A stretch of 39,856 nt of DNA from the IMG/VR virus record IMGVR_UViG_3300027804_000106, positions 1 through 39,856 of that record; one strand, 5' to 3'. Both the position numbers and the translations under genes were made by a program. The notes under the pieces are model-generated. The model was not told the DNA's origin and ran no database searches. It was given only the letters and a program-made list of their open reading frames with translations. Each line of letters opens with the position of its first letter. Position 1 is the first letter of the stretch. The stretch comes from a virus (lineage: Duplodnaviria; Caudoviricetes). Below, piece by piece: positions 1 to 36,472 of this stretch.

Positions 1-233
1 AACATATCTCTACTTGCTATTGCACTTGCCTCACTCTTCTCTAGCACCGCTATATCTTTTCTGAGTTGAGTGATCTCATGCAATATATAATCTTGTTCAA
101 ACTCTGTTGCATTCCATTGGTGAGAGGCAACAATATCTTTGAGCTTAATGTTCTCTTCATTTAACATATCAATGACATCAGATAACTCTAATATCCTATG
201 TTCTAAATCTGTATATTGTGGTTTGTCTCTCAT
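1..233 (-). CDS. Hypothetical coiled-coil phage protein, 5' part (runs off window)
   Basis: Manual translation from ATG at 233: MRDKPQYTDLEHRILELSDVIDMLNEENIKLKDIVASHQW...; open to the window edge; follows 247..669 in the same operon. Confidence 0.7.
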   Translation of the reverse strand, partial: MRDKPQYTDLEHRILELSDVIDMLNEENIKLKDIVASHQWNATEFEQDYILHEITQLRKDIAVLEKSEASAIASRDM

Positions 234-246
234 TTATAATTCTATG

Positions 247-669
247 CTACAAATTTACTTCAGTGAATAGGTATGTAGGAACATCATAAAAATATTCCCC
301 TTGACTTACTGCTTTGTTAGGTATCTCAGCGACTGCTGAATCTTTAATCACTTGTGAATCTACATACCATGCACGTTCCATACCTCTTGACACAACAAAA
401 TAAATAGTCTTCTTATTGTTGTTGAATAGTTTATCTTTTCGCTTGGGTATATGGATTGTTTTGAAGGGGCAATGATCCCAATCTCTCATTTCAATTTCAG
501 CATAGCCAATTAACTCTTTATCTTTTTCGATAATGAGATCTACTGCATACTGATTAGGATTGTGCCACGCATTCATTCCCCATGTGGCTTTGATATACTT
601 ACTTACTGCTTCCCTTGCTGGCGGATCACAAGCATCATGCACCGCTTGATTGAATGGCTTTGTCCTCAT
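247..669 (-). CDS. Putative PD-(D/E)XK-like nuclease-fold protein
   Basis: 140 aa; YAVDLII...YAEIEMR resembles the D...ExK/E motif of restriction-endonuclease-like folds. Confidence 0.5.
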   Translation of the reverse strand: MRTKPFNQAVHDACDPPAREAVSKYIKATWGMNAWHNPNQYAVDLIIEKDKELIGYAEIEMRDWDHCPFKTIHIPKRKDKLFNNNKKTIYFVVSRGMERAWYVDSQVIKDSAVAEIPNKAVSQGEYFYDVPTYLFTEVNL

Positions 670-862
670 AGTATTGCTTATTTCTTTGCCCTCTCTCTGT
701 TGGTTTTGGTAATACGATGTATCCCTCTGCTTCTAACTTCTTTAATCTGCGGTAGTTTGTATGGCAATTCTTAATGATGTCATCTATCGTAGCACTTGGA
801 TATCCTACAACATAAAACAAGATTTTATTTGCCATCTTCCTGTCATCAACTTTTGTATACAT
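635..862 (-). CDS. Small basic protein, possible winged-helix DNA-binding protein
   Basis: 75 aa; ATIDDIIKNCHTNYRRLKKLEAEGYI resembles a wHTH; TAATG overlap with the upstream ORF. Confidence 0.5.
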   Translation of the reverse strand: MYTKVDDRKMANKILFYVVGYPSATIDDIIKNCHTNYRRLKKLEAEGYIVLPKPTERGQRNKQYYEDKAIQSSGA

Positions 863-1020
863 TAAAACTTACTACCCACTTCCTGAAATATTTTCTCGAA
901 TGCTGATGGCTTGAAATCTTGCTTGTTAAATTCAAACATAGTCTTTTTGCCATTAGCGTGTTTAATATATCCCTTAACCAAAACATTTTCAACTATGATT
1001 GTTTTCTTTGTATCAGACAT
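862..1020 (-). CDS. Hypothetical protein (52 aa)
   Basis: Manual: MSDTKKTIIVENVLVKGYIKHANGKKTMFEFNKQDFKPSAFEKIFQEVGSKF; TAATG coupling at both ends. Confidence 0.7.
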   Translation of the reverse strand: MSDTKKTIIVENVLVKGYIKHANGKKTMFEFNKQDFKPSAFEKIFQEVGSKF

Positions 1021-1187
1021 TACTCACCTACCGTTCTATATGATATACCTAGATATATGTTTCTTACATTGTGTTTGTTAAGATTAAATTGTTTAGCTAC
1101 CTTTGGAATAGGCATGGTCTTCAATGCCTTCTTGATTGCTATGACCTGTTCAGTCGTTAAATATTTTTTATGATAAACTTCGCTCAT
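1020..1187 (-). CDS. Small HTH DNA-binding protein (55 aa)
   Basis: Manual: MSEVYHKKYLTTEQVIAIKKALKTMPIPKVAKQFNLNKHNVRNIYLGISYRTVGE; LTxEQV...VAKQFNL...V..I is an HTH pattern; GAGGAGG upstream; TAATG coupling. Confidence 0.65.
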   Translation of the reverse strand: MSEVYHKKYLTTEQVIAIKKALKTMPIPKVAKQFNLNKHNVRNIYLGISYRTVGE

Positions 1188-1360
1188 TAATATGGTGCCT
1201 CCTCGTAATCATTTGTATTAAACACTTCTTTTGGTGTTTTAGGTAACTCTATCACATCTATATCAGGGTGTGAATCTTTATACCATTTAGCTTCTCGTTT
1301 TGACCAACGATATTTCCTGATGATGTCTCCATCATCTACAACTGCGTGAGTAAAATCCAT
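1187..1360 (-). CDS. Hypothetical protein (57 aa), first gene of the left operon
   Basis: Manual: MDFTHAVVDDGDIIRKYRWSKREAKWYKDSHPDIDVIELPKTPKEVFNTNDYEEAPY; RBS AAAGGA upstream. Confidence 0.7.
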   Translation of the reverse strand: MDFTHAVVDDGDIIRKYRWSKREAKWYKDSHPDIDVIELPKTPKEVFNTNDYEEAPY

Positions 1361-1374
1361 ATGATCCTTTCATT

Positions 1375-1689
1375 GTTTTTAGAGATAGCTCCGCCTAGGG
1401 TGAGAAGTAGCACCTTTGATCCATATCAAGCAACACAAGCACACTCAATACCAATCCTACACAGAGTTAATGTTCAATCGACATACAGTAGGCAAGTCAC
1501 CCCAGTCCTGTATATCTTGTGTGATACCCATTTAAGTTCACGAGGCTCGCTTGCGGGTGTAAACAAGGCCTATGTATTCTTCCAAGCAACCCATGTAGGT
1601 TCACTGATATCGTTTGGAGTACGGATAGAAGGGAATAGAAAGATGATGACGTAGAAATACATCATCAACTTTCCTTGTCCAATCTCTCA
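1375..1689 (-). ncRNA. Candidate ~310-nt structured ncRNA or long 5' leader
   Basis: No convincing long ORF; more GC-rich than flanks; stems 1638-1673, 1480-1516, 1559-1604 and 1419-1425/1620-1626 each contain a position that is G.U on the - strand but a C.A mismatch on +; promoter-like element directly upstream. Confidence 0.5.
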
Positions 1690-1695
1690 TTTATT

Positions 1696-1724
1696 AATTT
1701 ACACCTAGTTGGATAAAAAAGCAA
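1696..1724 (-). promoter_or_regulatory. Putative sigma70 promoter
   Basis: - strand TTGCTT-N17-TAAATT, just downstream of the terminator at 1730-1768. Confidence 0.45.
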
Positions 1725-1729
1725 TAGCT

Positions 1730-1768
1730 AGAAAAGAAAAACCCCTAGATGATCAGTCTAAGGGTTTT
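1730..1768 (-). terminator. Rho-independent terminator
   Basis: - strand AAAACCCTTAGA-CTGATCA-TCTAGGGGTTTT followed by TCTTTTCT; the single non-WC pair is U.G on -. Confidence 0.8.
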
Positions 1769-1838
1769 AAGGTGCGAGGGACACCGAGACTTTATCAGAG
1801 AGATTAGATAAAGGAAAGCCGTGAGGAAAGGGACTCAC
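1730..1838 (-). ncRNA. Candidate ~110-nt sRNA with three CU-rich-loop hairpins plus terminator
   Basis: Bounded by a near-consensus promoter (1845-1873) and a terminator; hairpins 1821-1838, 1790-1813, 1771-1785; no ATG-initiated ORF. Confidence 0.65.
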
Positions 1839-1844
1839 AACGAA

Positions 1845-1873
1845 ACTATAACAAACCTGACTATTCCTGTCAA
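1845..1873 (-). promoter_or_regulatory. Strong sigma70 promoter
   Basis: - strand TTGACA-N17-TATAGT (11/12 consensus, optimal spacing). Confidence 0.8.
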
Positions 1874-1877
1874 CATA

Positions 1878-2066
1878 TTTGTAAAAGTTATATAGAAATA
1901 GTTGTATATAACTAAATGTTATATAGAATTAGGCATTATTCATGGTTTTATGGAGGATTTTGTATAGCAAAAGGCGCATTATATTCAATACAAACTAGTT
2001 TGTATGGAGTAAATTACATACAAAGGTGTTTGTATAGCAAAAATAGATCTTTTTTATATACAAAGG
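1878..2066. repeat. AT-rich array of direct and inverted TT(G/A)TAT repeats (operator or origin candidate)
   Basis: ATACAAACTAGTTTGTAT (1988-2005, perfect palindrome); ATACAAAggtgTTTGTAT (2018-2035); TTTGTATAGCAAAA x2 (1959, 2029); GTTATATAGAA x2 (1887, 1918); TAGTTGTATATAACTA (1899-1914). Confidence 0.6.
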
Positions 2067-2074
2067 AAAATATT

Positions 2075-2146
2075 ATGTGGACAACTCCAGCAGCTACAGA
2101 AATGCGTTTTGGCTTTGAAGTAACTATGTACGTAATGAACAAGTAA
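2075..2146 (+). CDS. pqqA: Pyrroloquinoline quinone precursor peptide PqqA (23 aa)
   Basis: MWTTPAATEMRFGFEVTMYVMNK: MWxxP...R(F/L)GFEVTxY signature with the Glu-x3-Tyr pair that becomes PQQ; RBS AAAGGA at 2062-2067. Confidence 0.95.
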   Translation: MWTTPAATEMRFGFEVTMYVMNK

Positions 2147-2181
2147 TGGTTATCGTAACAGATTGCTATTAGTAGTATAAT

Positions 2182-2202
2182 AGGGGACTTATGTCCCCTT
2201 TT
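2182..2202 (+). terminator. Hairpin/terminator-like element overlapping the RBS and ATG of the oxygenase gene
   Basis: AGGGGAC-TTAT-GTCCCCT followed by TTT; ATG 2191-2193 lies in the loop and start of the 3' stem. Confidence 0.55.
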
Positions 2203-2805
2203 GTACGCCATAAATTTGATATAGATGTTGATGAGATAGCCGATAAAGTCTTCAGACTGCAACAGCATTGGATATCTCGTTCAAATGAATTCCCTTTCTA
2301 CACTCTTGGAAGGTGCTCTTACCTAGATGGAAAGACACCAGCTTACCATGAGGAAATCAAGACTCTTAACCCAATACTTATAAAAGAATTTGATAGCTTA
2401 TATGCTATCATTATTGATCACTTATCGAATCAGTTCGGTGAACCTATTGCAATCAGTGATCGTCTAGCAATACCTTCCTTTCATATATTTATGTCAAGTC
2501 CATTCCTGCTTAGCCATGCAGGCCTTTGGCATCAAGACTACCCGCATCTTACATTAGACTTAGGATCAGTTGATCCCTATGCATTCACCGTAGCAATTAA
2601 ACTGCCAAGCGGTGGGGCTGGTATGGATTATATTGAAGATGGGAAACAGAAACATATAGCCTATAAAGAGAAAGAATTTATAGGCCATGATGGCACTATG
2701 CTACATAGGATTGCTGGATTAAAAACTTACGTGAGTGGGGAATACAGGATTACATTACAAGGACATTTGATACGCTTGAATGGCGTATTGACTATGTTTT
2801 GGTAA
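2191..2805 (+). CDS. 2OG-Fe(II) oxygenase superfamily protein
   Basis: HxD (WHQD), FTVAI..PSGGAG strand, distal H (LHRI) and RITLQ Arg: the HxD...H...R arrangement of DSBH dioxygenases. Confidence 0.75.
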   Translation: MSPFVRHKFDIDVDEIADKVFRLQQHWISRSNEFPFYTLGRCSYLDGKTPAYHEEIKTLNPILIKEFDSLYAIIIDHLSNQFGEPIAISDRLAIPSFHIFMSSPFLLSHAGLWHQDYPHLTLDLGSVDPYAFTVAIKLPSGGAGMDYIEDGKQKHIAYKEKEFIGHDGTMLHRIAGLKTYVSGEYRITLQGHLIRLNGVLTMFW

Positions 2806-2910
2806 TTAAAAGTATTTATAGGCCATTAAGAATAGTTTAATTACACCATACATTCCATACATCATGGCGGCAATAACTATTCCGTGAACGATAGGGTCTA
2901 ATTTGTTCAT
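2806..2910 (-). CDS. Small membrane peptide (34 aa)
   Basis: Manual: MNKLDPIVHGIVIAAMMYGMYGVIKLFLMAYKYF; ATGA overlap with the upstream ORF. Confidence 0.55.
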   Translation of the reverse strand: MNKLDPIVHGIVIAAMMYGMYGVIKLFLMAYKYF

Positions 2911-3068
2911 CTTTTTTTCTTCTTAAGTTTTCTTACTATCTGGAACTTCTTCTCATTACTGTATTCATTCCAATAAGTAATGTCATGCTTAGATCTACCA
3001 CAGCCTACGCAGTGATTGTTTTCCAGCTTACAAACTTTAATGCAAGGCGACTGAACCTCACTCTTCAT
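2907..3068 (-). CDS. DUF1289 (YdhL-like) Cys-rich, predicted Fe-S protein
   Basis: Manual: MKSEVQSPCIKVCKLENNHCVGCGRSKHDITYWNEYS...; SPCIxxC-x6-CxGCxR...IxxW signature. Confidence 0.8.
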   Translation of the reverse strand: MKSEVQSPCIKVCKLENNHCVGCGRSKHDITYWNEYSNEKKFQIVRKLKKKKR

Positions 3069-3270
3069 AGTGATCGTCTGGTATATACTTTACATCATAT
3101 CTAATATCACGAAGCATTTCAGAATCTGAATCATAAGCTACGCCATCTTTGTATGGCTTATCTTTATATGATTGATTCTTCTTCTTGCCCCATATACGAT
3201 CATATGCCTCGTCATAGGCTTCTTTATTAGTGGGTCTTTGCTTACTACCTTTTCCTGCTTCACTTGCCAT
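3058..3270 (-). CDS. Hypothetical phage protein
   Basis: 70 aa; GKGSKQRP...YDRIW motif; RBS AAGGA. Confidence 0.7.
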   Translation of the reverse strand: MASEAGKGSKQRPTNKEAYDEAYDRIWGKKKNQSYKDKPYKDGVAYDSDSEMLRDIRYDVKYIPDDHYEE

Positions 3271-3271
3271 A

Positions 3272-3442
3272 CTATTTCCTTAAACACATAATGACAGGGG
3301 TAATCCCTGGTCGTTTAACATTATCATACTTTTCTATTATAGCGGTTTTTGCATTCTCACAAGTAAGTTGTGAATCAAATTCTACGCTATAGGTTTCAAC
3401 AGACATATTGCCAAACATGATTACTATCATTATGTAATGCAT
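3272..3442 (-). CDS. Hypothetical protein with hydrophobic N-terminus (56 aa)
   Basis: Manual: MHYIMIVIMFGNMSVETYSVEFDSQLTCENAK...IMCLRK; RBS AGGAG. Confidence 0.65.
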   Translation of the reverse strand: MHYIMIVIMFGNMSVETYSVEFDSQLTCENAKTAIIEKYDNVKRPGITPVIMCLRK

Positions 3443-3450
3443 AATATCTC

Positions 3451-4155
3451 CTACAAAAGTTTACCGATCCATTTACCATTTGTATTAAGCATCATAGGCA
3501 TGAGTTTAGGCTGACCATTGATGATCATGCCACAGCCTACAATGAATCTAGTCTTAAAGTTTTTAGCATATTGGAATGCCATAGACTTCTGATTGATTAA
3601 ACAACCAACCTGCATACCCCAGACTAACTGATCTGGATTGCTGTAATATCCGATACTAAACTTGGTATGGTAGTGGCCCTGCACAGTGTGCATCCCGTAT
3701 TGCATGGCAACTTTAAGCACGTCAGCTGAAAGGCCGTGAGTAAAGAAGCATCGTGAGTTATCTGAAAGTGTCACTGTATGATCTTCCACCCATTTCCAAC
3801 CACTGCCAACACCAAGGTAATCATTGTAGTCTTTTAAGTAACCTTTAGGTACACCATGTTTTAATGCACGTCTAAACAACATAGATGAATGGTTAGAGTG
3901 AACAATAGTCATCTTAGGAAATATCTTTTCAAGCTTCTGAATGTAAGATATAGAGGCAGCCAACTCATGACCAGCAGAGTATAAGTCTGGATCACTATCA
4001 TGCATAGACATAGCGTGCATATCTAATTCATCACCTATGTTGACTATATGATCTGGTTTGTATTTTGTTTTGAGTGCGGTAAGAAAAGCAAAAGCATCTG
4101 GGTGGTGGTACGGAATATGTAGATCTGATATAACTAATACTGATTTATATTTCAT
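3451..4155 (-). CDS. Calcineurin-like metallophosphoesterase
   Basis: DLH, GDELD, SNH, THG, GHYH motifs; start chosen at MKYK after GAGGGA. Confidence 0.9.
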   Translation of the reverse strand: MKYKSVLVISDLHIPYHHPDAFAFLTALKTKYKPDHIVNIGDELDMHAMSMHDSDPDLYSAGHELAASISYIQKLEKIFPKMTIVHSNHSSMLFRRALKHGVPKGYLKDYNDYLGVGSGWKWVEDHTVTLSDNSRCFFTHGLSADVLKVAMQYGMHTVQGHYHTKFSIGYYSNPDQLVWGMQVGCLINQKSMAFQYAKNFKTRFIVGCGMIINGQPKLMPMMLNTNGKWIGKLL

Positions 4156-4171
4156 GGTTTCCCTCGTAAGT

Positions 4172-4519
4172 TTATAATTCTTTCCTATCAAACCCGTATA
4201 AAGCATTGAATTGAAACATCAATTTCCTGAATGTTTGATCATGCTTATCATAATGTGTTTTACCATCTAAGTAAAGCTTTAGATGAACCATTTCATGTGC
4301 AACGGTTCTCATCATGTTGACATAGGTTTCTTGGTGGTGCGTGCTAATCCGCATAATCATTGGCTCTACATCAAACTCACCGCAGATAGTTGGATCTGTA
4401 TTTACTTCAAAAATAATTTTGTGAGGCGCTGGAAGATTCCAGGTATTGAACGGAGGCATCTTTCTCAACATATCATACGTTACTTTAATTGTATAATCGT
4501 TGATGAGCCTTGTAGTCAT
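4172..4519 (-). CDS. SprT-like zinc metallopeptidase
   Basis: HEMVH plus downstream H..F motif (KHDQTF). Confidence 0.8.
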   Translation of the reverse strand: MTTRLINDYTIKVTYDMLRKMPPFNTWNLPAPHKIIFEVNTDPTICGEFDVEPMIMRISTHHQETYVNMMRTVAHEMVHLKLYLDGKTHYDKHDQTFRKLMFQFNALYGFDRKEL

Positions 4520-4520
4520 G

Positions 4521-4769
4521 TTAGAGTCCTGAGTTAGCTTCTACTAATAATTTGCTATCGTACTTCTTTACTGCGGTAAACTTTTCAGCTTTATCATCGC
4601 ACCTATACAGAGGTGTTAAGGTAATATTATGGAGTTTTGATTTCAGCTCATTCTTAAATGATATTTCAGATGGCTTGAATGGGGAGATAAAACTATTGAC
4701 AAGTTTGTTGTTGTGATCAAACTCTTCGTAGATCCATGCGTATGGTTGTTTGCCAGAGTTAATCATCAT
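4521..4769 (-). CDS. Hypothetical protein
   Basis: 82-aa ORF packed in the operon; PYAW...TPLY motif common in small phage proteins. Confidence 0.6.
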   Translation of the reverse strand: MMINSGKQPYAWIYEEFDHNNKLVNSFISPFKPSEISFKNELKSKLHNITLTPLYRCDDKAEKFTAVKKYDSKLLVEANSGL

Positions 4770-9104: not shown

Positions 9105-9133
9105 ATGTTGGCACATAATAAAATACATGTCAA
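9105..9133 (-). promoter_or_regulatory. Putative leftward promoter
   Basis: TTGACA-N17-CAACAT with TG at the extended -10 position. Confidence 0.5.
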
Positions 9134-9137
9134 TAGG

Positions 9138-9167
9138 TTGTACCCATATTAATTCATCTGCTATAAT
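9138..9167 (+). promoter_or_regulatory. Rightward extended -10 promoter of rusA
   Basis: TTGTAC-N18-TATAAT with TGn (TGCTATAAT). Confidence 0.7.
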
Positions 9168-9174
9168 ACACGAT

Positions 9175-9543
9175 ATGAAAACAATAAAACTAAAATTACC
9201 CTACCCTCCTACCGTAAATCATTACTGGGGCCAGCTCGGATCTAAGAAGTTTTTAGGAAAGAAGGGAAAAGAGTTCCGAGAAGCTGTGTTTTTATGCTCT
9301 TTAAACGCACGCCAAGGGGCCTTAAACGAACGATTGCACATGGAGGTATACCTGTACCCTCCCGACAAGAGAAAACGTGATGTAGATAACGTTTTAAAGC
9401 CTTTGTTGGATGCCTTAGAACATGCCAATGTATATGAGAATGACTCTCAAATAGATAAGCTATGTGTAACTCGAATGGAAGTAGCTAAGGAAGGGTATTG
9501 CGAAGTTGTTATTCAGGAGTTAATTTACTCACCTGATCATTAA
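9175..9543 (+). CDS. rusA: RusA-family Holliday junction resolvase
   Basis: LPYPPTVNHYW, PPDKRKRDVDNVLKPLLDAL, ENDSQID motifs. Confidence 0.92.
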   Translation: MKTIKLKLPYPPTVNHYWGQLGSKKFLGKKGKEFREAVFLCSLNARQGALNERLHMEVYLYPPDKRKRDVDNVLKPLLDALEHANVYENDSQIDKLCVTRMEVAKEGYCEVVIQELIYSPDH

Positions 9544-27892: not shown

Positions 27893-29194
27893 CTATGAAA
27901 TAGATATTAAAACATATCCAGCGCCACCAGCACCGCCAGGATGTCCGCAACATGAACCGTTTTGTGCGCCACCACCACCTCCGCCTGAGCCTTGAGATCC
28001 AGCAGAGCCTGCACCATTACCACAACCGCCTCCAGGTCCGCCAGCACCGCCAGAGGTATAAGTAGATGCACCACCATTACCACCACTACCTGTGCCTTGA
28101 GTACTAGATCCATTAGATCCTGCAGTGCCACCTGCGCCACCTGATCCACCTGTACCTCCAGGAGAAGTACCTCCACTACCACCGTTAACACTTAACAATA
28201 CTGTAGCTCCACGACTTAATGTTGTTGCTCCACCTGATCCTCCAGAAGATCCACTAGGTCCACAACCTCCAGCACCGCCACTACCTCCAACGCCCACAAC
28301 AACAGTTAAAGCTTCACCTGGAGTAACAGCAACTGTGCCAGATGTAAAATATCCTGATCCTCCACCGCCACCTGACCATCCATAATGTATATAACCACCA
28401 TCGTTACCAGCAGCGCCACCGCCACCTCCGCCTGTTAAGGCAGCTGTGATTGATGTAATTCCGCTTGGAACTGTATATGTATAAGTTCCTGCTGAAGAAT
28501 AAGTTATTACATTAGCGTTTAAAGGTGTAACTGTAACAAAACCTTGTGTACCAGAACCTCCACCTCTATTATTACCACCGCCACCACCACCAGAGCCATA
28601 ACCTGTACCAGGACTACCCGATGCACCAGTTACACTTGGTCCACCTCCAACGCCTCCCGCACCTCCTGTACCGTACGGAGAACTTGCACCATTACCCGCA
28701 TAAGCAGGGAAAGCTACATTTCCACCAGGAGATCCCGCAGTTCCGCCAGGACTTCCCCCTGCGCCCCCTGCCCTAGCTCCGCCACTTTGACCATTTGCAC
28801 CAGCAGTACAAGTTAATATACCAAATGTAGAGTTACCATTAACATTGCCAACGGTACCTGTAATAACTTGTCCTGGAGATACTGCATAAATGTAATTTGT
28901 ATAATAGCCACCAGAACCACCACCGCCAGAACCATAGTCATCTCCGCCTCCGCCACTACCTCCGCCAGCAATCATATTAACACTTAGTTGCGTAACTGTA
29001 GCAGGGACTGTGTAGCTAAAACTTCCTACAGTGCTAAATGTTGTAGGTCCTATGGTATCGGGATAAAATTGTTTACCTATACCACTCTGATTAATTAATG
29101 CATAATTAACAGATTTCCAAGTGCCTGATTGTCTAACATATAATCGTTGCACTTGTTTCCAAGTACCACTATCTTTTACATAAAGTTTTGGCAT
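27893..29194 (-). CDS. Glycine-rich tail fibre/RBP with two tandem Gly-rich domains
   Basis: LYVKDSGTWK N-terminal repeats; two YTVP.....GGGG...GGGSG domains. Confidence 0.75.
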   Translation of the reverse strand: MPKLYVKDSGTWKQVQRLYVRQSGTWKSVNYALINQSGIGKQFYPDTIGPTTFSTVGSFSYTVPATVTQLSVNMIAGGGSGGGGDDYGSGGGGSGGYYTNYIYAVSPGQVITGTVGNVNGNSTFGILTCTAGANGQSGGARAGGAGGSPGGTAGSPGGNVAFPAYAGNGASSPYGTGGAGGVGGGPSVTGASGSPGTGYGSGGGGGGNNRGGGSGTQGFVTVTPLNANVITYSSAGTYTYTVPSGITSITAALTGGGGGGAAGNDGGYIHYGWSGGGGGSGYFTSGTVAVTPGEALTVVVGVGGSGGAGGCGPSGSSGGSGGATTLSRGATVLLSVNGGSGGTSPGGTGGSGGAGGTAGSNGSSTQGTGSGGNGGASTYTSGGAGGPGGGCGNGAGSAGSQGSGGGGGGAQNGSCCGHPGGAGGAGYVLISIS

Positions 29195-29195
29195 A

Positions 29196-29429
29196 TTACC
29201 ACTTATCTATTGGACATTTTGTGTGAGTTAGTTTTGTTTTTAATTTGATAATACAGTTACATAAGTTGCATTTATCAACGCCTAAAGTTTCAACCTTTTC
29301 TGGACATTGATTGCAAATAGAAATTCTTTGTGCTGCTATTTGATCTGAAACGGTAAATCCTGCAGGCGCTTCTCCTAGGTATCTTGCTATTTCATATTCT
29401 GTTGCTTCTGATGGATTAATGTTTTCCAT
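29196..29429 (-). CDS. Small Cys-rich metal-binding protein
   Basis: RISICNQC...KCNLCNC...KTKL...CPIDKW; start MENINP. Confidence 0.7.
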   Translation of the reverse strand: MENINPSEATEYEIARYLGEAPAGFTVSDQIAAQRISICNQCPEKVETLGVDKCNLCNCIIKLKTKLTHTKCPIDKW

Positions 29430-29431
29430 AA

Positions 29432-30472
29432 TTAACTTACCTGATACCAAATGTCTCCGTCTGAACCGCCAGTTGGAGTGCTTGTTGAAATTGTTTTAGT
29501 ACCCGTACCGTTTGTACCTAAAGTAAGGCCACCCACAGTACTTGATGTAATTGTTGCGCCTGAGATAGCTACACCTGCAATTGTGCCTCCAGTAATTGCT
29601 ACTGCACTAGCATTTTGAGATGACATAGTACCAAGCACGCCTACAGTGGATTGTACGAATGCTGTGGTTGCAATATTAACTGAGTTATCACCAGCTGATG
29701 GTGTTGTAGCAATTGCACTAGCTGCACCTGTAATAGCTGTACCAGCACCTACTAATTGAGATGTATTAACTGTATAAGTACCAATACCTCCAGAGCCTGA
29801 GCTAAATCCAGTTACAAATGTACCTGCTGTAATGCCAGTACCAGATATTCTTTGGCCAATAAATATTGTTCCACTTGATACTGCAGATACGTTAAGAATA
29901 GTACCTGCTACACCAGAGCCGTTACTAATACCACCAGTAAATGAAGCCGATGTATAAGCACCTAGAACACCAGCAGCTAAAAAGTTACCTGTATTAGATT
30001 GATTGCCTAAAACAGATAGATTACCGTTTACTGTAAAGTTACTAGCAGTTCCTGTTTGTGCAGCATAGAATCCAGTACCTGTACCAGATTGATTGGTTGC
30101 ATCACAGTATATTTGTGCAGTTACACCTGATGGAACAGATAATGATACAGATCCACCAGACGCAGACATTGTAATTGTTTGGCCTGTAGCATTTCTTACA
30201 ATGTAAAATTTATTTTGTAATGGGGCTGAAACGGTGACTGTAGAAGCTGGAGTGCCTATAAATACTAAAGTTAAATTTCTAGATTCATCTGTAGTACCAT
30301 TAAGATTAGTAAGGGTATAAGTTGTAAGACCTGTTAAATCAATACCATCAACACCTGTTACGGCTTGTTCTATCAAGTTCCAGTTGTTATTGGTAGTTGA
30401 TCCCCAGGTACCAGCCTGTTCACCATCTCCAATGAGAGTGAGCTTTAGGGAGCTTGAATACGTAGATGCCAT
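29432..30472 (-). CDS. Tail fibre/adaptor protein
   Basis: MASTYS...[16 protein letters not shown]-terminus; [32 protein letters not shown] fibre motifs. Confidence 0.75.
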
Positions 30473-30481
30473 AATATGTCC

Positions 30482-31384
30482 TTATTGAGTATCGTCTATT
30501 ACAACCCATGAGCTAGGTTGGAAATTATTAATCTCAGCCCAAGATGTTGACTGAGTGTTGTTAATAGCTGACCAGGTAACAGCTTGGTCATCGTTTATTT
30601 TAAACCATCCACGAGGGAATTGGGAGTCTAACATTGATAATGTTTCTATGATAGAAGCCTGGAATTGAGCTGCTACCGCTGCTGAATCCGCTAAATTAGA
30701 GTTTTCAGTGAGTGAAACATTAAAGTTAGAAATCACAGAATTAGCATCAGCTGAATTAAAGCTTTCTGTAACAGCAAATGTAAATACAGAGATAATAGTC
30801 TCTATGTCTGCCATTGTGACATTTTCAGCTTTACTTGCTACAAAGTTAGCTATAACGCTTGCTGCGTCAGCCATAGTGATATTTTCAGTACGGCTTACAT
30901 TAAACTGAGCAGTGATAGCGTTTATATCATTTAGGTTGCTGTTTTCATTCAAACTAGCAGAAAACTGTGCAGCGATGGAAACAATATCTGCCATAGTAAA
31001 TGGCTCTACTCTAGATTCTAATGCTGCAAAGTAGTCTATTCTTACATCATCCATCACTACATTTTCTGTCTTACTTGTTGCGAACTGCGCTGTTATGTTG
31101 TTAACATCTGCTAAATTAGAATTCTCTGTAATGCTTGATGCAAACTGAGCTGTAACATTTTCTACATCGTTCATTGTTACAAACTCATTAATAAGTCCAA
31201 AGAATGAACCTGCTGTAGCATCAATATCATCCATAACTATGTTTTCTGTGACTGACGGTGCATACGCAAAAACTTGGCTGTTTAAGTCAGCCATGTTGAT
31301 ATTCTCAACCATAGAAAACGAGAATGCTGTGCCTCCACCTAGGGTTGCAAAAGGGGCTACGGCAAAGGCGGAATTACCAAACAT
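30482..31384 (-). CDS. Virion protein with exact 20-aa tandem repeats
   Basis: MFG...F...PF N-terminus; 11 full E(N)xx(M/L)xD-type 20-mers; C-terminal WxxI repeats. Confidence 0.75.
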   Translation of the reverse strand: MFGNSAFAVAPFATLGGGTAFSFSMVENINMADLNSQVFAYAPSVTENIVMDDIDATAGSFFGLINEFVTMNDVENVTAQFASSITENSNLADVNNITAQFATSKTENVVMDDVRIDYFAALESRVEPFTMADIVSIAAQFSASLNENSNLNDINAITAQFNVSRTENITMADAASVIANFVASKAENVTMADIETIISVFTFAVTESFNSADANSVISNFNVSLTENSNLADSAAVAAQFQASIIETLSMLDSQFPRGWFKINDDQAVTWSAINNTQSTSWAEINNFQPSSWVVIDDTQ

Positions 31385-31539
31385 TATTCGTCCGCAGGTA
31401 AGGGCTCGTTACCCTCTTCAAGCCATTTTAGGTAGGCTTGGTAGTCTGTGTTAGCTGGGTCAAATGGAATATAAGAGTTGTCAGCTAGACGAATAACAAT
31501 ATTTATTTCACCCATCAAATTTTTATATAGTTTGTACAT
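31384..31539 (-). CDS. Small tail-fibre-associated (chaperone-like) protein, 51 aa
   Basis: Manual: MYKLYKNLMGEINIVIRLADNSYIPFDPANTDYQAYLKWLEEGNEPLPADE; IP.DPANTDYQ.YL.W...GN.P motif. Confidence 0.8.
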   Translation of the reverse strand: MYKLYKNLMGEINIVIRLADNSYIPFDPANTDYQAYLKWLEEGNEPLPADE

Positions 31540-32463
31540 TTATAACTCCGCAGAAGCTTGCATTACGCCAGTTGTAGCAGTATAACCATCACTAGGTGCA
31601 GTGCCTCCACCGCTTACGCTACTATTGGCTATACCATCCCAAGTCCAAGTAAAGCCACTAGGATCTGATACTTTTGTAATTGTTGGTGTTGCTCTCATTA
31701 CTACAGGAAAAGGAACTGTACACGCTCTAAATCTATCTGATTCTCTTGCTTTAAAATATCTGTAGTTATCTGGATTTGTCCAAAAATACCTCTGACAATT
31801 AGCCAATTCCTGACTATAAAGTCTTTTTTCCAAAGGAGTTACTGTTGAGCCTGCCTCTAGTTGGACATCAGCATAATTAACTGTAACCCCTGATGGTTGT
31901 ACAGATGAATTTAATAAATAGCAAGTTAAACTTACGCAAGTTGCTGGTATAACAAAAGTTGCTTTAATTTGTTGCCATGTTCCTGTTGGTGTAACTGTAG
32001 TTGCTGATGTTGGTGTAATTTGTCCTACTGACACAGTAAAAGCATCTGTAGTATTAGAATATATATTCCATGATAAATTACCAGTATATGAACCAGCAGT
32101 AGTTTGAACCCAACCTGATAATGTAACTGTTTGATTTCTTAAATCTGTAATATTAACTGACTCAATACATTGCAAGATATTAACAAAAGTTGAAGAAGCA
32201 CTTGTTGTCCAAGTTAAAAAATAGTTACCATTTGGTGATGTAGGATTAGCTGATTTAGATATTGTGCAATTTGCAGAACCTGCAATATACCATCTATCTG
32301 CACATGAGTAAGTATTAACAGTAGTAGTAGATGTTGCTCTTTGCCAAACTTGAAATCCACCATTTATAATACGGTTCTTTAGCACATAAGGTGACGCTGC
32401 AGCTCCTTGTAGAGATGAGTCGTTAAAGGTTACTCCCGTGGTGCCGTCTACTATTAAAGACAT
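31540..32463 (-). CDS. Tail fibre/RBP with carbohydrate-binding-like domain
   Basis: KNRIINGGFQVWQR, ADRW, VQLEAG..TP.E.R...EL..CQRY, FPV.MRATP. Confidence 0.8.
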   Translation of the reverse strand: MSLIVDGTTGVTFNDSSLQGAAASPYVLKNRIINGGFQVWQRATSTTTVNTYSCADRWYIAGSANCTISKSANPTSPNGNYFLTWTTSASSTFVNILQCIESVNITDLRNQTVTLSGWVQTTAGSYTGNLSWNIYSNTTDAFTVSVGQITPTSATTVTPTGTWQQIKATFVIPATCVSLTCYLLNSSVQPSGVTVNYADVQLEAGSTVTPLEKRLYSQELANCQRYFWTNPDNYRYFKARESDRFRACTVPFPVVMRATPTITKVSDPSGFTWTWDGIANSSVSGGGTAPSDGYTATTGVMQASAEL

Positions 32464-32472
32464 TATTTTTTC

Positions 32473-33090
32473 CTATTCATATAAGATGTTAACCGAACCA
32501 GCATCAAATGTATCTGACCCAATTATTGTGGTTACACGGATGCGGTCTAGTGTGCCAGAAAGAGATACTGATCCGCCAGGTATAGATAAATAATTAATTG
32601 CTGTTCCAGCAGTTGTAGCACCACTAGCCACCCATGCATTGCCTGATATATTATAAAATGTTACTTGCCCATAAGTTAAATCCCCAGCATTTCCGCCAGA
32701 TGCAATTGAAATTCCACTAGTTGATGTTATTGTTCCTGTACTTGCTCCTGCATATCCAGTAATGTTTGAATATCCAGATGTAGTAAATGATCCAGATCCT
32801 AGTTGAATTAAAAAGTTATCTGCACCGCTTAAAGATACCCCATTAAATAGCATTGTTACTCTTTTAGCCCAATTAGGAATACCAGTAAATGTTATTACTG
32901 TGCCAGATGTAGAAGCTTGTGATGTGCCAAAGGTAATTAAAGAAGTTCCAGGTGTATAGGTGTTGATTTGAAATCCAGTAGAAGTTGCCGTAGCTACAGT
33001 CGTACCCGCACTTTGTAGTTGAAGCTGTCCTGTGTTATCAGAAGTTATAACTACGCCAGAGCTTGTTGTAGAATTTATTGTTGATGCCAT
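32473..33090 (-). CDS. Tail fibre-like protein
   Basis: FTGIPNWAKRVT...LDRIRVTT...FDAGSVNILYE. Confidence 0.75.
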   Translation of the reverse strand: MASTINSTTSSGVVITSDNTGQLQLQSAGTTVATATSTGFQINTYTPGTSLITFGTSQASTSGTVITFTGIPNWAKRVTMLFNGVSLSGADNFLIQLGSGSFTTSGYSNITGYAGASTGTITSTSGISIASGGNAGDLTYGQVTFYNISGNAWVASGATTAGTAINYLSIPGGSVSLSGTLDRIRVTTIIGSDTFDAGSVNILYE

Positions 33091-33093
33091 GTT

Positions 33094-33357
33094 TTATCCT
33101 TTTGGGTACTTATTTTTTACGGGGTCAATCATGTCTTCTTTCCAAGCATCAATCCCGTTGTGATAAATATAATCTAGTTGGTCTGCGATAGCTGGGTATT
33201 CTTGGGCTCTTTTTTCTTTGTATGCTTCTGCATCCATTAAAGCTTCTACTGCTTCATTATTATATGTAACTTCATTACCATCTTTATCGTAAGCAACATC
33301 ACCACGAATAAGTGTTACATTAGGATAAAGTTTATATATAGCTGAATGTTTATTCAT
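33094..33357 (-). CDS. Tail fibre assembly chaperone-like protein
   Basis: R..EYP.IADQLD.IYH.G...W......VK.KYPK. Confidence 0.7.
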   Translation of the reverse strand: MNKHSAIYKLYPNVTLIRGDVAYDKDGNEVTYNNEAVEALMDAEAYKEKRAQEYPAIADQLDYIYHNGIDAWKEDMIDPVKNKYPKG

Positions 33358-33920
33358 TATCCTCTAATCTCCATAAGTGTTAATGTGCATCCAACTTCTG
33401 TTGCGCCATTTACATTATTAATAAATGTTTGAAAAACATTACCGTTAGACGCTAATTGAACTTTATATGTTGTGCTACTTGTAGAAGCTGGCGAGTCTAA
33501 AACAATTGTGGATGTTGTTCCTACATCAACTTGAGTAGTAGAGTTCCAAGGTGATTGAGCAGTTTCTGTTGAAAAATCATCAATAGTAGTAGAGTTTCTA
33601 ACTAATCTTAAAGCAACCCTACAATTTCCAGTATTCTTTCCAACACCAACCATTGTTGCAAATACCAAAACTCTATTAGATGCCGATGCTGGAGTAATAG
33701 AGGCACTTAATCCTGTGTCTGCATAAGTAGATGAAGAAGAGGATGTAAAAGTTGAGTAGCCGCTTTGAACCACCTGAACTACACTTCCTGTTGGCATTGC
33801 ATTTGATGTAACTAATGTGCCTGTCGTTGTAGGTAGCGTTAATGTTGTACTTCCTGAAACCGCTGGGGCTTGAAGTATGATTGATCCGCTTGTATCGCCT
33901 GATATGGTAACTGAACTCAT
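33357..33920 (-). CDS. Tail fibre-like protein
   Basis: TLTLP..TGT, GSVVQVV, LDSPASTS..TYK, LTLMEI; start MSSVT overlaps upstream TGA. Confidence 0.75.
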   Translation of the reverse strand: MSSVTISGDTSGSIILQAPAVSGSTTLTLPTTTGTLVTSNAMPTGSVVQVVQSGYSTFTSSSSSTYADTGLSASITPASASNRVLVFATMVGVGKNTGNCRVALRLVRNSTTIDDFSTETAQSPWNSTTQVDVGTTSTIVLDSPASTSSTTYKVQLASNGNVFQTFINNVNGATEVGCTLTLMEIRG

Positions 33921-34129
33921 AGCACCACCCATTTACTGCCTGACGGCACGGTTATATTAATACCTGAATTGATTGTTAAAGGACCCACGCTCATCGCACT
34001 TGACCCTGCTGTTATCGTATAACTTGTTGTCACTGTTCTTGTGTTTTCATAAAGAGGTACAGTAGGTGCTAACACTGTGACGTTAGAACTTGTACCTATC
34101 ATTGTATTTTGGACTTTAGTTAATGCCAT
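33917..34129 (-). CDS. Small tail-associated protein
   Basis: YTI....AMSVGP.TI..G..ITVPSGS.WVVL. Confidence 0.75.
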   Translation of the reverse strand: MALTKVQNTMIGTSSNVTVLAPTVPLYENTRTVTTSYTITAGSSAMSVGPLTINSGINITVPSGSKWVVL

Positions 34130-34138
34130 AGTTTATCC

Positions 34139-35101
34139 TTACGCTGTATAGCTTCCTGAAGAATTAAATTGTAATATTGTATTTGCACCTGAAGTAGTAA
34201 CTGTAGGGCTTCCTGTTGTAGTACCTGTGTACTTTGCAGTTGGTATAGAAATAATTACGACTCCTGAGCCACCAGAACCACCAGACCCTGAATTTCTGCC
34301 AGCACCGCCACCACCACCACCAGTATTTGCGGTTCCCGCAGTACCATTTGCACCTATTCCAAGGCCTCCAGCTCCTCCACCACCAGTACCTCCAGAGCCT
34401 GATGAACCAGCTCCTGACCCACCACCGCCACCACCAGCACGAGTTACAGATGAACCAGTAATTGAAGAAGCAGAACCATTACCACCGTTGCCTCCTGCAC
34501 TAAATGCTCCGTTTGAACCAGCAGCGCCAGCACCACCACCACCCCCTCCAGCTACAGTACCAGCTCCTCCATCCCATCCAGATCCAGCACCGCCTACGCT
34601 ACCTTGACCAGTAGTGTTATTAGTTGGGGACGAAGTGTTACTATAACCATTCCCGCCTCCTGATCCTCCAGTACCACCTGGTGAACCTGAGTTATCTGTA
34701 ATACCATTTCCACCGCCTATAGCAGTAAATCCTAGCGCTACAGAATTTGCTCCGCTTGTTGCAGATCCTCCGCCAGCGCCTACAGTTACGCTATATAGTG
34801 TTCCTGGTGATACGCTAGTTGAGCCAGTTAAATACCCGCCAGCGCCACCACCACCGCCTGTCCAAGCATTACCACCACCTCCACCGCCAGCAACAATAAG
34901 GTAGCTAACAGAATATGGTGCCCCTAGATTAAATGGAACCCACGCAGAAGAGTCAGAGCTATACCATTCTGGATTTCCAGTAGTTGTATTAAACCCAACC
35001 ATACCAGCAGTTGCTGGAGATGGACGAGTTCCCGTAGTCCACTGTGGTAGATTCAGTGCAGTGTTTCGTATAAACCCAGCAAATATGTCGGCTTGTGACA
35101 T
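34139..35101 (-). CDS. Glycine-rich tail fibre/RBP with Mtd-N-like N-terminus
   Basis: WTTGTRP....GMVGFNTTTG..EWY; YLIVAGGGGG; ANTGGGGGG; GGSGVVII. Confidence 0.8.
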   Translation of the reverse strand: MSQADIFAGFIRNTALNLPQWTTGTRPSPATAGMVGFNTTTGNPEWYSSDSSAWVPFNLGAPYSVSYLIVAGGGGGGNAWTGGGGGAGGYLTGSTSVSPGTLYSVTVGAGGGSATSGANSVALGFTAIGGGNGITDNSGSPGGTGGSGGGNGYSNTSSPTNNTTGQGSVGGAGSGWDGGAGTVAGGGGGGAGAAGSNGAFSAGGNGGNGSASSITGSSVTRAGGGGGGSGAGSSGSGGTGGGGAGGLGIGANGTAGTANTGGGGGGAGRNSGSGGSGGSGVVIISIPTAKYTGTTTGSPTVTTSGANTILQFNSSGSYTA

Positions 35102-35110
35102 TTATTATCC

Positions 35111-35455
35111 TTATATTACTTCTTTCCAAGAAGTTGATGCTTCATCCCAATTATATACTTTACCATCGTCTGGCATTGCAACGGGTGCTTCCCATAACCA
35201 TGTATCTTCATTAAGAACCCAAGAATTAAAAGGTTTAGGTGCTACGAATACATCGTTAGTTGCATCGTATGTGTAACCAATTCCAGCGTAGTTACCTCTT
35301 AAAGGTCTGCCTTCTGGGTGTTGATTACCATGCGTATTATAGCTTGTTTGAATCCAAGTACCAGGACTTGAATCTACGAATGTATCAAAAAATTCTGGTT
35401 CAGCCACGATGACCTGTGTAACCTTACCGTCTACTACTTTTGCAAAATGACTCAT
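35111..35455 (-). CDS. Tail-fibre-associated protein
   Basis: MSHFAK...WIQTSYN...RGNYAGIGYTYD...F..PKPF.SW......W.APV.MP. Confidence 0.8.
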   Translation of the reverse strand: MSHFAKVVDGKVTQVIVAEPEFFDTFVDSSPGTWIQTSYNTHGNQHPEGRPLRGNYAGIGYTYDATNDVFVAPKPFNSWVLNEDTWLWEAPVAMPDDGKVYNWDEASTSWKEVI

Positions 35456-35464
35456 TGTTTCTCC

Positions 35465-36472
35465 TTATGCTGTATAAGTACCGCTTGCTGTAAATGTAAT
35501 AATTGTATTAGAACCTGAAGTTGTAATTGTCGGTGAACCTGTCGTAGTGCCTGTATAGTTTGCGGTTGGTACGGATAAAATGACCACACCTGAGCCACCA
35601 GAGAAGGGTCCATTAGCAGAACCATTTCCATTACCACCGCCACCACCACCTGTATTAGCAGTGCCAGCAGCTCCACCTCCGCCACTATTAGTAGATCCAG
35701 CACCTCCGCCTCCAGATCCACCAGCTCCTCCTGGTGCACCACCACCTCCACCACCGCCAGCATAAGTTACTGAAGATCCAGTAATTGATGAAGCAGTGCC
35801 AGCACCACCAGCACCACCAGCAGTAGCTCCGTTTGAACCTATAGCACTAGATCCTCCTCCACCAGCACCTGCTAAACCAGTAGCTCCTGTTCCACCTGCA
35901 AATCCTTGTCCAGATGTTGCTGCACCTCCTGTACCACCAGCATATCCACCAAATCCACCACCGCCTCCACCACCAGAGCCACCAGATCTTCCGTTTGGAG
36001 TATTATATCCTCCTGGAGGATAGTTTAATGAACCAGCACCACCCCCGCCAATAGAAGTTACAGTTGTAATGCCCGTGCCTGATAATACAGAGTTAGCTCC
36101 ACTACTTCCTTGAAGCTGTGAAACTGCTCCAGCTCCTCCAGCTCCTACTGTAGCTGAGTATGTTGTACCAGATATTAGAGTAGCTGAACCTGTTAATAAT
36201 CCCCCTGCTCCACCTCCACCACCAGCATTTTCACCGCCACCACCACCACCTGCAATAACTAAATAAGTAGCTGAATAAGTATTTCCTGCTGTTCCTGCAT
36301 TTGTCCAACCAATAGCACCATAAATCTCTAGTTGACCTGTAGTAGTATTGTAACCAAGTTGTCCTATTACGGGGCTTGAAGGGCGTGTAGCTGTAGTCCA
36401 AGTAGCCACAGATAATCCTGTAGAACTATCTAGTGTACTTGATCCTGATGCTCCAGTTAATATGAGTGCCAT
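35465..36472 (-). CDS. Glycine-rich tail fibre/RBP, paralog of 34139..35101
   Basis: WTTATRP....GQLGYNTTTG..EIY; same Gly-rich architecture and closely similar C-terminus. Confidence 0.8.
   Translation of the reverse strand: MALILTGASGSSTLDSSTGLSVATWTTATRPSSPVIGQLGYNTTTGQLEIYGAIGWTNAGTAGNTYSATYLVIAGGGGGGENAGGGGGAGGLLTGSATLISGTTYSATVGAGGAGAVSQLQGSSGANSVLSGTGITTVTSIGGGGAGSLNYPPGGYNTPNGRSGGSGGGGGGGFGGYAGGTGGAATSGQGFAGGTGATGLAGAGGGGSSAIGSNGATAGGAGGAGTASSITGSSVTYAGGGGGGGAPGGAGGSGGGGAGSTNSGGGGAAGTANTGGGGGGNGNGSANGPFSGGSGVVILSVPTANYTGTTTGSPTITTSGSNTIITFTASGTYTA

Follow-up and report, generated by a model that had tools for sequence, protein, structure and literature searches.

Why does a phage carry a 72-bp gene for PqqA, the precursor peptide of the cofactor PQQ, and what could it gain from doing so? 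The gene lies in a virus record of 39,856 nt that we analysed over its whole length (hereafter the window). The record is estimated to be 66% complete, with about a third of the genome absent. The presumed hosts, Methylophilaceae, are abundant methanol consumers of lakes and coasts.

Viral pqqA, together with the interpretation that it tops up the host pathway, has been in print since 2020. As far as the accessible part of that paper goes (Coutinho et al. 2020, PMC7678222), PqqA of the Lake Baikal virus VP_266 was interpreted as we do here, with a predicted Methylophilaceae host and a proposed role in boosting methanol oxidation; the same part holds no data on spread, selection or promoter. 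VP_266 is T4-like and also carries a methanol dehydrogenase, whereas the window phage is podovirus-like, and pqqA is the sole pqq gene in the 66% at hand. In reservoir sediments, viral pqqA, pqqD and pqqE, likewise on viral contigs, were listed as phosphorus-cycle auxiliary metabolic genes (AMGs) (PMC13188868); the available text frames them as phosphate solubilisation, without host, context or mechanism. Among the matches listed, no paper beyond these two reports viral pqqA. The string "pqq" is absent from the main text of the isolate papers PMC8024684, PMC10580990 and PMC8163748 and of PMC13059738, and from the text supplements of PMC8024684, PMC10580990, PMC8163748 (9 of 19 files) and PMC9004378. 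What we add is that pqqA has spread, unannotated, through cultured Methylophilaceae phages, and that a host-type promoter box goes with it.

A PqqA gene in a phage genome and its likely host

Translation of the gene (Table 1) gives MWTTPAATEMRFGFEVTMYVMNK, followed by a stop. The peptide scores 38.8 bits against TIGR02107 (cut-off 20) and 40.3 bits against PF08042 (cut-off 21.1), so that the family profile search proposed in an earlier, sequence-only reading of this DNA exceeded both curated cut-offs. A PqqA is expected to have 22-30 aa with Glu-x3-Tyr near the C-terminus; the phage peptide has 23 aa, and Glu15 and Tyr19 form its E-x3-Y pair. The sequence-only reading had described an intact 23-aa PqqA with its own ribosome-binding site (RBS), masked in the ORF list by a longer frame, and both descriptions were borne out: the RBS is in place, and pqqA is only the tail of a listed 76-aa ORF (1916-2146). 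We rejected that ORF as a true gene, since its N-terminal extension is unconserved: across 5 related phages the open frame spans anything between 27 and 75 aa. Judged by its sequence, the 72-bp gene encodes a genuine phage-borne PqqA.

Table 1. Features around pqqA, in window coordinates
Feature	Position	Strand	Basis or remark
17-bp dyad box, predicted site of a host transcription activator	1939-1955		matrix from host pqqA promoters
Nested inverted repeats of the predicted leader	1959-2064	+	repeat finder (D1, I1, I7, I8) and fold
Candidate -10 hexamer CATTAT	1977-1982	+	21 nt after the box; without canonical -35
Ribosome-binding site AGGA	2064-2067	+	7 nt upstream of the pqqA ATG
pqqA, 23-aa PQQ precursor peptide	2075-2146	+	translation and family profiles
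8-codon frame MVIVTDCY	2146-2172	+	overlaps the pqqA stop; alternatively folds as a hairpin
GC hairpin and T run	2175-2206	+	inverted repeat I12 and fold; start codon of the 204-aa ORF in the loop
Fe(II)/2-oxoglutarate-oxygenase-fold protein, 204 aa, accessory	2191-2805	+	co-oriented with pqqA

The window also encodes an endolysin, Erf, RusA, and virion and ejection proteins, and phage genes flank pqqA on both sides. Its near-complete relatives measure 63-66 kb, and the phage is podovirus-like with a genome of roughly 60 kb; no cultured close relative was found, the best virion-protein match being 33%. Neighbouring genes lie nearly all on the - strand, and pqqA and the 204-aa ORF form a + strand island adjoined by a leftward sigma-70-type promoter (1873-1845). 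PqqB, PqqC, PqqD and PqqE proteins from 4 host loci gave no tblastn match in the window (66% of the genome), and pqqB-E likewise gave none in the viral loci L001-L130. The sequenced 66% thus holds no complete biosynthetic cluster of pqqB, C, D and E beside pqqA, and the original description of a pqqA among phage genes without pqqB-E stood.

An assembly chimera of phage and host DNA had to be considered, as pqqA matches host DNA exactly and has very deep coverage from other contigs, conditions that favour misjoins. However, independent IMG/VR contigs run colinear with the window across pqqA and both flanks: L001 over positions 1-3457 (92.8%), L002 over 1352-4631 (91.4%) and L003 over 1910-4543 (82.0%). 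A further relative, L019, aligns over pqqA and its upstream side at 83%. Each of the four has its own pqqA allele, 1-7 nt from that of the window, and pqqA is also present in the genomes of cultured phages. Because independent colinear contigs cross the gene and its flanks with alleles of their own, we regard a chimera as exceedingly unlikely. The sequence-only reading had proposed read mapping as the check on this point; the phage locus is upheld by the colinear contigs (82-93%) rather than by mapping. When 4 of the 20 runs were mapped, no contig piece had at least 31 letters on both sides of a pqqA end, an outcome that is neutral on a chimera. As a host-derived metabolic gene between viral genes in a genuine viral genome, pqqA is a putative AMG.

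To place the host, we scanned 6 of 64 parts of a genome collection with a pattern of 11 core codons, which matched 125 loci. Their titles are mostly Methylophilaceae, with a minority of unnamed Burkholderiales or Betaproteobacteria. No peptide is commoner among hosts than that of the phage, which 48 of 129 unique host copies encode. Among the 80 host copies with enough flank, 17 directly precede pqqB, and 8 of these 17 encode exactly the phage peptide. At the nucleotide level, the window gene is identical (72/72) to one of the 3 copies in Ca. Methylopumilus universalis and matches another at 71/72. Nine sequencing runs contained at least half of the sampled words; all nine are freshwater metagenomes, and they come from 6 studies. 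By these sequence matches, Methylophilaceae are well supported as the host family. Methylopumilus is plausible as the genus, which is less sure than the family because one further record is also 72/72 identical. The freshwater habitat favours a Methylopumilus-like host over marine OM43; of the Methylopumilus/OM43-like Methylophilaceae host suggested originally, the family and the Methylopumilus-like part agree with the freshwater runs and the 72/72 identity, and the marine OM43 part does not.

The sequence-only reading had noted that some Methylophilaceae carry extra pqqA copies. The accessible part of PMC4109929 gives 3-12 pqqA copies against one pqqB-G set, and we found 1-7 pattern matches per genome in 5 host genomes. 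In Ca. M. universalis all 3 copies are orphans (L260, L264, L267), each with the upstream box described below, and pqqE lies at 578 kb, more than 100 kb from every one of them. Because no copy adjoins pqqE, the pathway of this host already runs on stand-alone pqqA. In one Burkholderiales locus (L221), two pqqA copies stand in tandem about 23 nt apart.

Spread and constraint among phages

The tblastn search across viral databases that the sequence-only reading had proposed was run, together with blastn, over 50,697 phage records, and each returned 12 records. Nine are cultured Methylophilaceae phages (P19250A, MEP301, Venkman, MEP401, MEP402 and 4 Melnitz records), which span several unrelated phage types. 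The remaining three are one spring metagenome phage and two "Acinetobacter phage" records, and apart from these two the search found no pqqA in cultured phages of other hosts. The one "Acinetobacter phage" record that we inspected contains a pqqABCDE operon in a chromosome-like context. This record (CAKLQF020000010.1, "Acinetobacter phage MD-2021a", L379), which holds ppk as well as the full pqq operon, is probably host chromosome filed as phage. Other named phages of the family by NCBI taxonomy, namely HIM624-A (partial), MEP431-434, Venkman EXVC038S, Mg-MtP1 and Rsa-MfP1, gave no match and may lie outside the searched collection; we do not claim pqqA for every cultured Methylophilaceae phage.

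The P19250A gene (KX815270.1, 28085-28153; locus L005) encodes a PqqA 100% identical to the window peptide and is unannotated. This corrects a published statement, found in the accessible part of PMC7678222, according to which P19250A lacks all of the AMGs described there. We extracted 7 of the 10 phage copies found by BLAST, and all are intact, have an RBS and keep E-x3-Y. None of the seven is annotated as pqqA: five have no feature, and two, in Melnitz (L011, MZ577097.1, 76140-76205) and the spring phage (L006), lie under an opposite-strand hypothetical CDS. The Melnitz gene is directly upstream of a tRNA-Leu.

In 4 of the 64 parts of IMG/VR, a pattern scan found 119 loci, which extrapolates to about 2300 stretches. 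The pattern fixed Glu and Tyr by design, and the scan is uninformative on their loss. An intact frame of 23-25 aa was present in all 119 matches, and an RBS-like word lies upstream of 113 of 118 viral copies. The peptide is identical to a host peptide in 58 of the 119 and matches none in the host sample in the other 61; Ser6 occurs in 34/114 phage and 2/115 host peptides. Over the 11 codons left free by the pattern, pN/pS was 0.28 in phages (103 genes) and 0.29 in hosts (106 genes), computed from pairs that are phylogenetically non-independent. These substitution ratios indicate that phage pqqA is kept under purifying selection, with a constraint like that in hosts.

In the 80 viral loci with long flanks, 139 proteins flank pqqA, of which 111 have a PHROGs match; these diverse viral proteins include a T4-like polymerase and clamp loader as well as capsid, terminase and exonuclease. 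The gene is co-oriented with both neighbours in 21 viral loci and antisense to both in 25, and these near-equal numbers fit a self-contained unit. HNH or other homing-type endonuclease genes stand directly beside pqqA in L015, L063, L079 and L004; such endonucleases are a possible route of its spread.

Could pqqA be a mere passenger, for instance a neutral acquisition, a hot spot of recombination with the host, or the attachment site for integration into host pqqA? The window copy is identical over 72/72 nt to 2 host copies and differs by 1-7 nt from those of close phage relatives, a pattern that suggests recent exchange. However, most differences among members of the phage group are at third positions (200/270), pN/pS is low, and unrelated phages retain the RBS, the box and the frame, so we consider a passenger improbable. 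Against an attachment site in particular, a PF00589 integrase was found in none of 5 relatives (2 of them near-complete; control 14/14), in a search that covered tyrosine recombinases, and no integrase is named among the 139 flanking proteins. We rejected an attP role for pqqA, since all 5 relatives lack a tyrosine integrase.

A host-type box and what the gene may supply

By k-mer counts, a strong word occurs upstream of host pqqA and a related word in phages. We built a 17-bp matrix from host upstream regions only, with the near-dyad consensus CTAATGAAAATCATGAG. It marks 114 of 121 host regions, a circular count as the matrix was trained on them, mostly 120-150 nt upstream of the pqqA start. 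In viruses, 67 of 100 non-redundant upstream regions have a box above 8 bits and 33 fall below that score, compared with 0-2 of 100 in each of 5 shuffles and, for control windows elsewhere in the same loci, 8 of 408. Strong sites in the 80 long viral loci are concentrated near the gene, with 44 of 56 falling 40-200 nt upstream of it. In the window, the box scores 9.1 bits and is the sole site above 7 bits in 39.9 kb. Eleven related loci have a box at the equivalent position at 8.9-22.2 bits, the window copy being among the weakest. Of the six cultured phages inspected, P19250A (16 bits), MEP301, Venkman and Melnitz have the box; that of MEP402 is out of place, and MEP401 has none.

The spacing to the -10 hexamer, counted at 5/6 matches or better, differs between hosts and phages. 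In 45 of 114 host regions the gap is exactly 44 nt, with a weaker second box at +23; in viral regions the modal gap is exactly 21 nt (25 of 66), so the phage box occupies the position of the host proximal box. The viral box is centred near -42, presumably a class II activator position, and canonical -35 words are rare. The hexamer in the window is a candidate -10 by position, with only 4/6 matches to TATAAT and no entry in the sigma-70 scan output; relative L019 has CATAAT there.

The closest counterpart of the phage gene is the orphan chromosomal pqqA of Methylophilaceae, which shares its peptide, RBS, 3' hairpin, stand-alone layout and dyad box. The phage gene differs in its viral location and in the phage oxygenase downstream, and where the orphan host gene has a strong box at 44 nt and a weaker one at 21 nt from the -10, the phage has one box at 21 nt.

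What else does the box mark? A strict box pattern has 22 matches in 4 host genomes. Eleven are upstream of pqqA, one each upstream of tldD, ahcY and a PqqU-like receptor (below cut-off, truncated), one over the initial codons of a quinoprotein-relay hydrolase gene, and 7 well inside unrelated coding genes. We rejected the box as a general methanol-dehydrogenase promoter element, since 9 of 10 methanol/alcohol dehydrogenase loci have no box above 6 bits upstream of the dehydrogenase start; the exceptions in these loci are a 9.8-bit site on the mxaF RBS region and a 17.2-bit site upstream of xoxJ in an OM43 genome. This distribution ties phage pqqA to PQQ supply and not directly to methanol oxidation. 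The tldD and PqqU-like TonB receptor sites are both in Methylobacillus flagellatus. Together with xoxJ (OM43) and ahcY (another host), they possibly outline a PQQ regulon (L356:1501-1515, L366:1501-1515, L369:3434-3450 and L355:1501-1515 for the tldD, PqqU-like receptor, xoxJ and ahcY set).

A candidate for reading the box, inferred from conservation alone, is a PAS-kinase/NarL-type regulator pair that is 77-83% identical across all 4 hosts. The histidine kinase, the regulator and an EamA transporter are kept in all four (L381-L384), and the NarL-type regulator is the only LuxR-type match in the OM43 genome, which is incomplete. The conserved regulator (L382:1105-1692) has a paralogue at L388:1477-2115. 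The same box also stands upstream of pqqB-linked pqqA in uncultured Burkholderiales/Betaproteobacteria (L137, L138, L139, L154), so the regulator may reach beyond Methylophilaceae. No description of the box was found in the literature searched, which included the accessible part of PMC12997753 and mostly did not extend to subscription journals. The shared box offers a handle on the control of PQQ synthesis in Methylophilaceae and a cheap marker for host prediction.

Each PqqA peptide gives rise to one PQQ. PqqD binds PqqA (Kd 0.39 uM) and delivers it to PqqE, which cross-links its Glu and Tyr, according to the accessible part of PMC10906245. We consider it probable that a host regulator switches on the intact phage gene and that host PqqD, PqqE, PqqB and PqqC convert its product into extra PQQ for methanol dehydrogenase during infection. 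Host RNA polymerase, with an activator at the box, would transcribe phage pqqA; the host machinery would accept the peptide in trans, as with the orphan chromosomal copies; PqqA supply would limit PQQ in the infected cell; and the extra PQQ would keep methanol oxidation going, so that phage replication could draw on more energy and carbon from methanol. Substrate supply was also the main inference of the sequence-only reading, which mentioned neither the upstream box nor the downstream oxygenase, and we regard it as the best reading. In a PQQ producer strain, pqqA expression peaks with the rate of PQQ synthesis (accessible part of PMC9851590). The precursor top-up is weakened by the several pqqA copies that hosts already hold and by the weak box and -10 of the window. 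PQQ is also a reusable cofactor, which may lessen any need for new synthesis within one lytic cycle. When RNA runs were mapped to window positions 1000-3500, 2 runs contained pqqA pieces, which are short and run into unlike flanks, one of them resembling a host upstream region; with such flanks the pieces are uninformative on the phage copy.

Extra PQQ might instead bring another benefit, as a redox protectant, for another quinoprotein, or by resetting a PQQ-sensing host regulator. Besides pqqA, the box is found at a few PQQ-linked genes (tldD and, below cut-off, the PqqU-like receptor) but not at dehydrogenase promoters, and hosts have a second, divergent PQQ-type dehydrogenase. Nevertheless, we find such a use unlikely: in an OM43 strain no gene is transcribed more highly than xoxF, the obvious sink for PQQ (PMC5120137, accessible part), and Baikal phages carry pqqA along with methanol dehydrogenase (PMC7678222, accessible part).

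The opposite effect is conceivable too, with the phage peptide as a decoy that sequesters PqqD or PqqE and so reduces PQQ synthesis. The tight PqqA-PqqD binding cited above would suit a decoy, as would the 61 of 119 viral peptides that match no sampled host peptide and the greater frequency of Ser6 in phages. However, the phage peptide equals pqqB-linked host precursors (the 8 of 17 above) and should be processed alike, and E-x3-Y is kept in 7/7 extracted cultured or GenBank copies, which makes a decoy decidedly improbable.

Returning to a PQQ top-up through the host pathway, a 72-bp gene missed by gene callers yet kept by unrelated phages points to one shared infection pressure, PQQ supply. 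A bolder form of this proposal is that pqqA is a near-universal, convergently acquired signature of Methylophilaceae phages, with the two-box host PQQ promoter rebuilt as a one-box version driven by the host regulator. We advance it tentatively, with a little less than even confidence. If true, cofactor-precursor supply would be the bottleneck when methylotrophs are infected, comparable to psbA for cyanophages, and the 72-bp gene with its 17-bp box would allow a host to be assigned to thousands of viral contigs that lack one. The AMG idea is testable in the cultured phage-host pairs of P19250A, Venkman, Melnitz, MEP301 and MEP401/402. In the main text of PMC9004378, PQQ appears solely as an additive, at 1 nM, of one of the media used for these pairs; in that medium it could mask an effect of pqqA.

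The downstream oxygenase and the rest of the locus

The 204-aa protein downstream of pqqA is predicted by AlphaFold with a pLDDT of 95, and its top Foldseek matches are WelO5 (TM up to 0.75). It has the fold and the position of the His-x-Asp...His triad in common with WelO5-like oxygenases, but only about 10% identity. The triad residues (H114-x-D116...H172) and R186 are invariant in 47 sequences. Halogenases leave open the position where the phage protein keeps Asp, which makes a hydroxylase likelier than a halogenase. The protein belongs to an unannotated phage family (phrog_24927) with 209 homologues, some of them in the Prochlorococcus phages P-HM1/2.

We considered whether the two genes form a modification unit, in which the oxygenase would act as a hydroxylase on PqqA, on an intermediate of PQQ or on the 8-aa peptide of Table 1, giving another product or a shortcut to PQQ. 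All 9 of the 80 viral oxygenase loci with at least 65% identity have a co-oriented pqqA upstream, at 16-53 nt in 8 of them, and the order of precursor, hairpin and enzyme mirrors the pqqA-hairpin-pqqB layout of hosts. Seven of these loci are clearly colinear with the window and one probably is, placing 8 of 9 in, or probably in, one phage group; the ninth, L004, holds both genes in an unrelated context, with an endonuclease between them. Against a unit, none of the 71 more distant oxygenase loci has pqqA, none of the 119 scan loci (80 with long flanks) has the oxygenase near pqqA, so that the pair is confined to relatives already found, L019 has pqqA without the oxygenase, and the family extends to Prochlorococcus phages. 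Linkage by descent explains most of the pairing; a functional pair is a minor possibility, and the modification unit as formulated is a long shot.

Within the predicted leader, the clearest hairpin is at 1998-2023. The leader repeats are kept in L003, L019, L269, L270, L272 and L273 and replaced in L001 and L002. The leader and pqqA region gave one Rfam match, at chance level, and no tRNA, so we rejected a structured RNA family or tRNA there. The 8-codon frame after pqqA accompanies only 7 of the 131 viral matches and none of the 135 host matches, and we rejected it as a general partner peptide of PqqA; in L001-L004, L019 and L036, where it is present, changes are mostly synonymous and also preserve the stem. 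The hairpin that follows has counterparts in related loci and is absent from the terminator scan output; we regard it as a candidate terminator or attenuator. In several relatives, the start codon of the 204-aa ORF lies 8-10 nt past a TATAAT.

Some further features of the window deserve mention. About 500 nt at 1360-1870 hold no convincing gene and no Rfam match, and are kept in relatives. This interval contains three terminator-like hairpins on the - strand, and 6 such hairpins fall in 1300-2950 against 0.9 expected. Between the leftward promoter and the box, 1875-1932 contains a direct repeat spaced by 31 nt and small inverted repeats, a possible operator pair for the divergent region. The RusA resolvase gene (9127-9543, +) stands between the replication block and the virion block and is oriented opposite to its neighbours. 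In the tail-fibre region (27893-36472, -), several glycine-rich repeat proteins (433, 320 and 335 aa) are the source of a local shift in GC content and skew.
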